Virus record (IMG/VR): IMGVR_UViG_2526164598_000014
Direction: 5' to 3' (one strand)
DNA length: 49,244 nt
Source: a virus
Taxonomy: Duplodnaviria; Heunggongvirae; Uroviricota; Caudoviricetes
Both the position numbers and the translations under genes were made by a program. This document shows positions 21,244 to 24,540 of this stretch, piece by piece (the stretch's first letter is position 1; every line of letters starts with the position of its first letter). Below the pieces are notes generated by a model, which was not told the DNA's origin, did no database searches, and worked only from the letters and a program-made list of their open reading frames with translations.

Positions 21244-21459
21244 ATGAAATCCATGGATAAGTTAACAACGGGTGTCGCCTATGGCACCTCAGCAGGTAGT
21301 GCCGGTTACTGGTTTTTACAGCTGCTCGATAAAGTCACGCCCTCACAGTGGGCAGCAATAGGTGTGCAGGGTAGCCTGGTATTTGGCCTGCTGACGTACC
21401 TGACAAACCTTTATTTCAAGATTAAAGAAGATAAGCGCAAGGCTGCGAGAGGTGAATAA
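21244..21459 (+). CDS. S: Class II pinholin of phage 21 S type, 71 aa, dual-start motif MKSM
   Basis: [58 protein letters not shown]... two TM segments, Met1 and Met4. Confidence 0.9.
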
Positions 21460-21796
21460 TGCCTCCATCATTACGAAAAGCCGTTGCTGCTGCTATTGGT
21501 GGCGGAGCAATTGCTATAGCATCAGTGTTAATCACTGGCCCAAGTGGTAACGATGGTCTGGAAGGTGTCAGCTACATACCATACAAAGATATTGTTGGTG
21601 TATGGACTGTATGTCACGGGCATACAGGAAAAGACATCATGCTCGGTAAAACGTATACCAAAGCAGAATGCAAAGCCCTCCTGAATAAAGACCTTGCCAC
21701 GGTCGCCAGACAAATTAACCCGTACATCAAAGTCGATATTGTCAACGCCAAGATTATTGGCCGTTTTTCGCCATTTTTAATGTCCGCTATTGGTCA

Positions 21797-22594
21797 TTAA
21801 TGTTGTCCGCTTTCCGCCATTTCATCATCACTGATTGGCGTGGCGTTTTTTGCCAGCACTCCCGCTTTGCGTTTTTCCTTTAACCGGTAGCTTTCTCCTT
21901 TGATGTTCAGTGTGGTTGAGTGGTGGAGCAGTCGATCCAGGATTGCCGTTGCCAGCACGTTATCGCCGAACATCTCTCCCCAGTCGGCGAACCCTTTATT
22001 TGATGTCAGCACGATGCTCGCTTTTTCATATCGACGGTTCAGCAACCGGAAGAACAGACTGGCTTCCTCGCGGGTCATCGGCAGATAGCCTATCTCATCC
22101 AGTATCAGTACCCGGGCATAACCAAGCTGCTGTAGCTGTTTTTCCAGCCGGTTTTCCTGTTTTGCCTTCATGAGTGTGGCGATCAGCTTATCCAGTGGCA
22201 TGAACAGTACCCGATGACCAGCGTCCGCCGCTTTTACCCCGAGAGCGACTGCCAGGTGCGTTTTACCCACACCGGGCGGACCCAGCAGGATCACGTTCTC
22301 GCTACGCTCCACGAACGCCAGCCCGGCCAGCTCACGGACGACCTTACGATCGATACCTGGCTGGAAGCCGAAGTCGAACTGCTCCAGCGTTTTGACCCAC
22401 GGGAAGCGGGCCTGTTTCAGCCGGGACTCCATACCGCGCTGATGCCTCCCGTTCCATTCCTGCTGCAACGCCATGCACAGGAACTCGCGGTAGTTCAGTT
22501 CTTTTTTGGCCGCCTGCTCCAGCAGGCTTTCAACGTGGTAGCCCAGATGTTCCATTTTAAGACGACTCAGCAGTGTCTCCAGTTCATGCATCAC
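21797..22594 (-). CDS. istB: IS21-family IstB ATP-binding helper protein
   Basis: 265-aa ORF with Walker [10 protein letters not shown]. Confidence 0.9.
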
Positions 22595-23763
22595 AACAGC
22601 TCCTCATACGTACTCAACGGTCTGTGTTCCACCTGACTGACCTGCTGCCAGAGTGGGGCGTGATGCTCCGGCACGGTTTGCCAGCTGGATGCAGCCGAAC
22701 AGAGACGGTGCGATGCTACCTGTTGCTCATTACTGTAGATCCGTAGTTCATCATCCAGCGAGATCCGTATTGATACCGGCTGGCCACACAGGCTTTCCGG
22801 TACGCTGTAACGGTTCCCGCCAACCTCGATATAGCCATCCCAGGAGACATGACGGATATCGAAATAGCTGGTATCGAAGTCCGTACCCGGCAGCGGATGC
22901 AGATGCTCCTGTTCCTGCGTGAAGCGCTGTTCCGGTGTCTGCCTGAACTGGCGAAGTTCTCGCCTGTCAGCAACGTCAGCCATCCACTGCTCCAGTAGCT
23001 GGTTAACATGGGCGAAGCTGTCGAACCGGCGGTACCGGACGAAGAAGTTTTCCTTGAGGTATTTCACCATCCGTTCAACCTTACCTTTGGTTCTGGCCCT
23101 TCGTGGACGGCAGGCCCGTGGCAGGAAGCCATAGTGATCGGCCAGCAGCAGGAACCCGGAGTTGAACACCACCTTCCCATTGTTATTTTTCAGAACTGCG
23201 GCTTTCTGGTTATCGACCAGCACGGTTTTCACGCTACCGCCGAAGTAGCGAAAGGCGCGGACCAGTGACTCATAGGTATGTTCAGCATCCTGCTTTGGTG
23301 CCGCGAAGACATGGAAGCGACGTGAGAACCCCAGCGTATTAACCGCGAAGTTAACCCTGCATCGTTGCCCGGCAACCTCAGCCTCAACTTCTCCCCAGTC
23401 ATGCTGTAGCTGGTAACCGGGCTGAGTTTCGAAGCGAACCGTTTTCTTCGATGGCCGCATCTTACGTTTGGGCTGGATGTAGTAGCGCAACATGGAACGG
23501 CCACCGGTATAACCCATCGCTTTGATTTCCGCCAGGATGACCTCGCCGTTCCAGACGTTCTCAGCCAGACGCATATCTATATAGTCCATGAACGGCTTGA
23601 GTTTGGCCATTTTGTGGCGTGTTTTTCTGGCCGGAGGTTCCGGGTATTTCAGGTACCGTCTGACGGTCCGCTCAGAGCAACCAACCTGAGTGGCAATATC
23701 AACAATATACGCACCTTGCTGGCGCATTTGCTTTATCATGTAAAAATCCTCTCTGCTCAGCAT
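22591..23763 (-). CDS. istA: IS21-family IstA transposase
   Basis: 390-aa ORF with N-terminal HTH and DDE domain, upstream of and overlapping istB. Confidence 0.9.
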
Positions 23764-24081
23764 GAGTGTTCCCTTTGTGGTGTAGGAACCTTAAGGAAAC
23801 AACATGTTGGGTGGAGCGGACAATCCAAATGGTGAATTACTGTCTTATATCATTGGCGCTGACAATATACCGGAAACAATGCGCGGCGCTCTTTACTCAT
23901 TCGTTTACAACGTGGGTGCTGGCAATTTCAGAACATCGACGCTTCTTCGCAAAATAAACCAGGGCGATATCAAAGGCGCATGTGATCAGCTACGTCGCTG
24001 GACATATGCTGGCGGTAAGCAATGGAAAGGTCTCATGACTCGTCGTGAGATTGAGCGTGAAATCTGTTTGTGGGGTCAGCA

Positions 24082-24540
24082 ATGAACAGAGTAACCGCGA
24101 TTATCTCCGCTCTGGTTATCTGCATCATCGTCGGCCTGTCATGGGCTGTTAATCATTACCGTGATAACGCCATTACCTACAAAGCCCAGCGCGACAAAAA
24201 TGCCAGAGAACTGAAGCTGGCGAACGTGGCAATTACTGACATGCAGATGCGTCAGCGTGATGTTGCTGCGCTCGATGCAAGATACACAAAGGAGCTTGCT
24301 GATGCTAACGCGACTATCGAAAGTCTCCGTGCTGATGTTTCTGCTGGGCGTAAGCGCCTGCAAGTCGCCGCCACCTGTGCAAAGTCAACGACCGGAGCCA
24401 GCGGCATGGGCGATGGAGAAAGCCCAGGACTTACAGCAGATGCTGAACTCAATTATTACCGTCTCCGAAGTGGAATCGACAAGATAACCGCGCAGGTTAA
24501 CTACCTGCAGGAATACATCAGGACGCAATGCCTGAAATAA
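24082..24540 (+). CDS. Rz: Rz inner-membrane spanin
   Basis: N-terminal TM segment, coiled-coil body; ATG at 24082 overlaps endolysin stop. Confidence 0.85.
24302..24487 (+). CDS. Rz1: Rz1 outer-membrane lipoprotein spanin, embedded in +1 frame of Rz
   Basis: ATG at 24302 preceded by AAGGAG; lipoprotein signal [20 protein letters not shown] followed by proline-rich segment. Confidence 0.65.

Follow-up and report, generated by a model that had tools for sequence, protein, structure and literature searches.

Among the described lysis systems, the closest to the locus considered here are those of phage 21 and of DLP12. In phage 21, membrane depolarisation by the S21 pinholin releases and activates the membrane-tethered signal-arrest-release (SAR) endolysin, and the spanins then disrupt the outer membrane; the SAR behaviour of its endolysin, R21, is experimentally established. 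A review-type description of this system is available (PMC7312051). The second relative is the essD-rrrD-rzpD cassette of DLP12 in Escherichia coli K-12, the endolysin of which, RrrD, is represented by PDB 4ZPU. Here, we analysed a 49,244-nucleotide stretch of tailed-phage DNA (IMG/VR record IMGVR_UViG_2526164598_000014; hereafter, the window) from a prophage of E. coli DEC13C, assigned to contig AIHH01000020.1 of that strain by an exact protein match. Its lysis cassette resembles both of these systems but carries, within the endolysin gene R, a complete copy of ISEc62, an insertion sequence (IS) of the IS21 family. We hold with high confidence that ISEc62 inserted into R of this lambdoid prophage, cutting the endolysin and giving rise to a lysis-defective prophage.

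With phage 21 (OL657228; PDB 3HDE/3HDF), the window cassette shares the gene order, the overlapping stop/start junctions, the MKSM dual start of the holin and, once its halves are rejoined, R itself; in phage 21, R is uninterrupted, whereas in the window it is split by the IS. Also unlike in phage 21, there is no bor gene downstream of the window cassette, the prophage adjoins ybhC, and a porin gene lies between Q and S. The likeness to the K-12 DLP12 cassette extends to Q, the porin gene in the opposite orientation, the S-R-Rz order and the EssD-type holin, and relatives go by the names essD and rrrD in RefSeq. Compared with relatives such as TUM9757, where rrrD is intact (RefSeq), R of the window is again set apart by its ISEc62. 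Judged by its genes, the cassette follows the order pinholin S, SAR endolysin R, Rz and Rz1, within the late operon of the lambdoid prophage.

The open reading frame (ORF) of the endolysin begins at 21459, where its start overlaps the holin stop (TAATG). The 5′ fragment of the gene (21459-21739, forward strand) comprises codons 1-93 plus 2 nucleotides, matches positions 3-64 of the 125-position Pfam lysozyme profile PF00959, and carries the SAR segment (residues ~8-27) together with the catalytic residues E35, D44 and T50. Its normal frame ends in ...NPYIKVD; at 21740, the frame is lost and the sequence switches to TGTCAACGCCAAG..., such that the ORF continues into the IS as far as a stop at 21800 and specifies an N-terminal product of 113 amino acids, with a 19-residue IS-encoded tail after residue 94. 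The IS finishes at 23864 with ...TTGGCGCTGACA, and past the second ATAT the lysozyme frame resumes in the 3′ fragment (23869-24085, forward strand), which runs from the last nucleotide of codon 94 to the stop, ends in ...WGQQ at 24085 and matches profile positions 63-125 of 125, the two fragments being complementary halves of PF00959. The break between KVD and IPET lies exactly where the initial annotation, made from the sequence alone, had placed it. Within the istA-proximal end of the IS, a 93-amino-acid ORF (23804-24085) starts at the ATG at 23804 and continues in frame into the 3′ half of the gene; its expression is purely hypothetical.

Removal in silico of 21740-23868, that is, of the IS and one ATAT, yields a 498-nucleotide ORF without frameshift that encodes a full-length lysozyme of 165 amino acids, as the initial annotation had anticipated. 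The rejoined protein matches, at 100% identity, both the full-length enzyme of phage 21 deposited as PDB 3HDE (‘Lysozyme’) and the product of the OL657228 coding sequence annotated as ‘SAR endolysin glycosyl hydrolase’; at the DNA level, 494 of the 498 nucleotides agree with phage 21. From E. coli RrrD (PDB 4ZPU), it differs in 2 of 165 residues. Ahead of the break, residues 1-93 are identical to those of R21 and PDB 3HDE, with the weakly hydrophobic, Gly/Ala-rich, uncleaved signal anchor and the E-D-T triad in place, in agreement with the earlier description of the N-terminus as a membrane-tethering segment. In intact relatives, the empty site contains a single ATAT (GTCGATATACCGG). The anatomy of the locus, the sequence identities and the return of an exact R21 once the IS is excised can all be read directly from the DNA. 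The lysozyme ORF is interrupted at codon 93/94, where 2125 bp and the 4-bp duplication separate its halves, and the endolysin gene of the window is a disrupted R21-type member, a pseudogene.

The inserted ISEc62 is complete (2125 bp, 21740-23864, reverse strand), with its genes antisense to the lysis operon, and is flanked by the target-site duplication ATAT (left copy, 21736-21739; right copy, 23865-23868). The ends of the element, TGTCAACGCCAA at the left and, inverted, TGTCAGCGCCAA at the right, form a terminal inverted repeat that matches at 11 of 12 positions, and subterminal repeats are present as direct copies at 21757-21778 and 21803-21824 and as an inverted copy at 23815-23836. Subterminal repeats of this kind are typical of multi-site transposase binding. 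The element carries istA (22591-23763, reverse strand), encoding a DDE transposase of 390 amino acids with helix-turn-helix, rve (DDE integrase core) and Mu-transpos_C_2 domains, and istB (21797-22591, reverse strand), encoding an AAA+ helper ATPase of 264 amino acids from its ATG (PF01695, IstB_IS21; 9.9e-88); the istB start overlaps the istA stop by 1 nucleotide (TGATG), the same arrangement as in the RefSeq annotation. The presence of istA and istB, TG...CA ends with subterminal motifs, a short duplication and near-identity to ISEc62 place the element in the IS21 family, the prototype of which is IS21 of plasmid R68.45; with ISEc62, it shares the 1-nucleotide istA/istB overlap, the TGT...ACA ends, the subterminal repeats and the 4-bp duplication, whereas ISEc62 and true IS21 are ~86% identical. 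The earlier call of a 2125-bp IS21-family element with terminal inverted repeats and an ATAT duplication is thus fully upheld.

Over all 2125 bp, the element is 100% identical to at least 20 copies annotated in RefSeq as ‘IS21-like element ISEc62 family transposase’ and ‘helper ATPase IstB’, an agreement far beyond chance that confirms the observation as real. Matching copies reside on many chromosomes and plasmids, and a near-full-length relative was found in 709 of 5426 complete E. coli genomes. The copy in the window is intact and comes from a recently active population; it does not differ from ISEc62 in the element itself, and only its insertion site is particular. All 25 copies that we inspected, namely, those in the window, in the source contig and in JNE070796 (a complete genome of E. 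coli O166:H15) as well as 22 further ones (L005-L018, L027-L034), are 2125 bp long. Of 13 ISEc62 copies in an unbiased sample, ten had a duplication of 4 bp, two of 5 bp and one of 6 bp, and there was no consensus among the duplicated target sequences. Because 4-bp duplications are usual and lack a consensus, the ATAT found here is a normal ISEc62 footprint. An apparent preference of ISEc62 for ATAT/CCGG flanks proved to be a ranking bias, produced when matches were sorted by the similarity of their flanks to the query, and was absent from the 13 unbiased copies. In the literature, only two mentions of ISEc62 came up, both incidental. Elsewhere, ISEc62 has entered the copper-sensor gene pcoS twice (strains 203740 and F5505-C1; L028 and L031), at different positions and in opposite orientations.

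Upstream of R lies a class II holin, or pinholin, gene with a dual start (21244-21459, forward strand), encoding 71 amino acids that match PF04971 (‘Bacteriophage P21 holin S’, 3.5e-34) over profile positions 1-63 of 64. The N-terminus has the same MKSM motif (21244-21255) as S21-71 / S21-68 of phage 21 and, by its sequence, would give rise to a 71-residue antiholin form from Met1 (21244) and a 68-residue holin form from Met4 (21253). The profile match, the dual start and the identity to R21 bear out the initial assignment of the module to the pinholin plus SAR endolysin type. The same annotation had described the holin and spanins as intact, which is the case for Rz and Rz1 and, insofar as the ORF is open, for the holin; the latter, however, carries the substitution L42Q (CTG to CAG; A at 21368, where JNE070796 has T) within the second transmembrane domain (TMD2), the pore-forming (pinhole) helix, at a position where 15 of 15 aligned relatives and phage 21 have L. 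The exact L42Q holin protein is recorded on only 4 contigs (DEC13C/D and two others). We found no mutational data for pinholin L42 in the full-text literature, the coverage of which excluded the key mutagenesis papers, and a nanopore-screen preprint likewise had no data for L42. The substitution may be neutral in its effect, may reflect relaxed selection or may be a second hit that makes the holin less lethal.

Downstream of R, the Rz-type i-spanin gene (24082-24540, forward strand) is intact and encodes 152 amino acids (PF03245, 4.5e-40, full length), its start overlapping the endolysin stop at 24085 (ATGA). The Rz1-type o-spanin gene (24302-24487, forward strand), also intact, encodes 61 amino acids (PF06085, 2.2e-20, full length), is embedded in the +1 frame of Rz and specifies the lipobox VSAC. 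An i-spanin with an N-terminal transmembrane domain and an embedded o-spanin lipoprotein gene are thus both in place, as in a two-component spanin. Identity to the phage 21 counterparts is uneven: 60 of 71 amino acids for S (~85%), an EssD/DLP12-like allele; 99 of 152 (65%) for Rz; and 23 of 61 (38%) for Rz1, which makes the spanin allele a different one. The derivation of the whole cassette from phage 21 is ruled out, only R being near-identical. The label ‘phage-21-type’, under which the module was initially described, therefore holds for the mechanistic class, while the cassette itself is a mosaic in which only R is phage 21 proper. The C-terminal half of Rz together with Rz1 is very unlike phage 21, amounting to an unusual mosaic spanin allele, and at 90% identity the Rz protein clusters with no other; it is seen on only 3 contigs.

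In the course of events that we propose, a complete ISEc62 moved into codon 93/94 of R, with duplication of the ATAT target. The resulting N-terminal piece keeps the SAR anchor and the catalytic triad but has lost the C-terminal lobe, and the C-terminal piece has neither an export signal nor catalytic residues. On induction, the pinholin would still depolarise the membrane and kill the cell, provided that the L42Q allele is active; with no muralytic enzyme coming from the prophage, the wall would stay undegraded, and neither lysis nor release would ensue. Rz/Rz1 and the morphogenesis genes follow the IS on the same late transcript, and Q-modified polymerase would be expected to pass through the weak terminator-like sites of the IS. 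Muralytic activity is presumably lost, and, by analogy with the known phenotypes of R-null mutants, the prophage would therefore be lysis-defective. Thus, left to its own gene products, the lambdoid prophage on the ybhC side of DEC13C very probably cannot lyse its host, which supports the interpretation originally offered. Several considerations weigh against this conclusion. The defect in lysis is inferred; co-induction of other prophages in this genome might provide an endolysin in trans; the prediction of killing without lysis may fail because of the rare L42Q substitution in the holin; and, because the tail-tip gene J is also damaged, the break in the endolysin may add nothing to the loss of phage production.

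Two other explanations deny either that the insertion is real or that it is disabling. The source is a 2011-era draft and ISEc62 is multi-copy in related strains, so that the IS could have been placed in R by a repeat that was collapsed or mis-joined at a contig junction. However, both junctions are clean, the 4-bp duplication is perfect, the ORF is exactly restorable and the element sits within a 122-kb contig; moreover, identical junctions are present in JNE070796, an independent complete genome, and we accordingly rejected an assembly artefact, the probability of which is negligible. Conversely, the insertion might be genuine and the split endolysin nonetheless functional, either through an active N-terminal fragment or through complementation between the fragments, leaving lysis unimpaired: the N-terminal fragment does retain the export/anchor segment along with E35, D44 and T50, and the ORF that starts at the ATG within the IS shares its frame with the C-terminal half. 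Yet that fragment covers only about half of the lysozyme profile (positions 3-64 of 125), and the C-terminal piece, having neither a signal nor a SAR segment, would remain in the cytoplasm. GH24/T4-lysozyme-type folds have their substrate cleft between the two lobes. RefSeq, too, treats both halves as pseudogenes at the equivalent locus of JNE070796, and we consider a functional split endolysin very improbable.

Of the 5426 complete genomes, only three match a 3.5-kb query across at least 80% of its length; the median number of places matching the lysis region is 3 per E. coli genome. In JNE070796, ISEc62 interrupts rrrD (L001, 3641-5765) at the very base pair that is hit in the window, its orientation and its ATAT duplication being the same too, and the locus is annotated as two pseudogene halves flanking ISEc62. 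The two loci differ, however, in the IS haplotype, the rrrD allele, the early region and the chromosomal site. The flanks are 5-7% different, up to 38 bp to the left and 12 bp to the right of the IS. The IS haplotypes are separated by 5 linked single-nucleotide polymorphisms, the window copy representing the majority haplotype and the JNE070796 copy a second one; in other strains, majority-haplotype copies with 100% identity to the former are found at unrelated loci, and copies with 100% identity to the latter in yfdR and yejO. The JNE070796 prophage occupies another chromosomal site, on the zur/dusA side, and its early region is unrelated, whereas the late regions of the two prophages, from Q to J, are ~96% identical. 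In a third strain, E200139, rrrD is interrupted in the same orientation by a different element, true IS21, 30 bp further into the gene and with the duplication ACTC (L003, 3687-5816; equivalent to window position ~21770). In TUM9757, IS21 sits, again in the same orientation, in the KilA-N gene ~1 kb downstream, past Rz (L002, 4943-7073; window position ~25170), apparently with a duplication of only 3 bp (CCA).

The coincidence of the insertions in DEC13C and JNE070796 can be read in two ways. Because each of the two ISEc62 copies seems much more recent than the split between the flanking sequences, two independent hits at one site make for the simpler reading, and the JNE070796 copy is probably an independent insertion, which would make the site a hot spot; the same-site ISEc62 copies together with the IS21 located 30 bp downstream suggest a local hot spot for insertion of IS21-family elements. 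Alternatively, a single ancestral insertion could have been inherited by both prophages, and gene conversion from other prophage and IS copies could then have replaced its flanks and the IS itself. Common descent would account for the shared base pair, orientation and ATAT, and is in line with the similarity of the late regions; ISEc62 lacks a target consensus from which a second hit at this site could be foreseen, and the several rrrD paralogues of an E. coli genome are possible conversion donors. Against it stand the divergence of the flanks close to the IS, the different IS haplotypes, each identical to copies at unrelated loci elsewhere, the different chromosomal sites and early regions, and the presence in a third strain of true IS21, a separate element that lies 30 bp off and points the same way. 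On balance, we regard descent from one event as possible, if rather unlikely.

For IS21, a structural, IstB-driven target preference for kinkable DNA has been proposed (PMC11208146), and the GATATAC target contains two TpA steps. We give roughly even chances to the broader proposition that GTCGATAT/ACCGG in R21/rrrD-type endolysin genes constitutes a structural, kink-prone hot spot for IS21-family transposition selected by IstB, at which the SAR endolysins of E. coli prophages would be repeatedly and independently knocked out, each time at one and the same base pair. A search for the left junction (GTCGATATTGTCARCGCCAAG) gave 0 matches in IMG/VR viral contigs and 7 in JGI metagenome contigs, all of the latter being chance matches inside unrelated genes, and thus no further examples from these collections. 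In itself, the insertion described here is a case of ordinary prophage decay by an insertion sequence: each of its parts (R21, the S21-type pinholin, Rz/Rz1, ISEc62) has been characterised or catalogued, there is nothing mechanistically new, and the equivalent locus already figures as a pseudogene pair in pipeline annotations. Repeat use of the site by IS21-family elements is the sole point that could add to knowledge. If the hot spot is true, it would represent a recurrent route to ‘grounding’ lambdoid prophages, and the repeated use of one base pair or of its 30-bp neighbourhood, if real, would offer a natural test case for IstB-driven targeting by IS21 (PMC11208146).

The prophage starts beside ybhC with an integrase gene and encodes lambda-like exo/bet/gam, P, NinB, RusA and the Q antiterminator, followed, downstream of the lysis cassette, by a KilA-N/ORF11CD3 gene and lambda-like head and tail genes. 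Its defects are not confined to lysis, because J carries an IS66-family insertion and possibly a frameshift as well. The IS66-family element (about 45200-47900, reverse strand; tnpA 47190-47867, tnpB 46843-47190, tnpC 45252-46823) lies in the 3′ end of J, an arrangement common to at least 96 complete E. coli genomes. In addition, compared with the homologue in strain DCE7, J shows a 1-bp deletion in a G-run near 43809, which separates the ORFs 42489-43841 and 43871-45331 and could be either a real frameshift or a homopolymer sequencing error of the draft.

Between Q and the holin gene, and opposite to the late operon as in DLP12, lies an intact gene for an OmpC/NmpC-type porin of 360 amino acids (19588-20670, reverse strand), which is likely a lysogenic-conversion (moron) gene. 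Upstream of the holin gene, a hairpin resembling an intrinsic terminator (21099-21130, forward strand) consists of AAACCCGCCGTCGAGCGGGTTT followed by a T-rich tail; its position, the lambdoid layout and the annotation of phage 21 suggest that it is the tR′-type terminator of the late operon.

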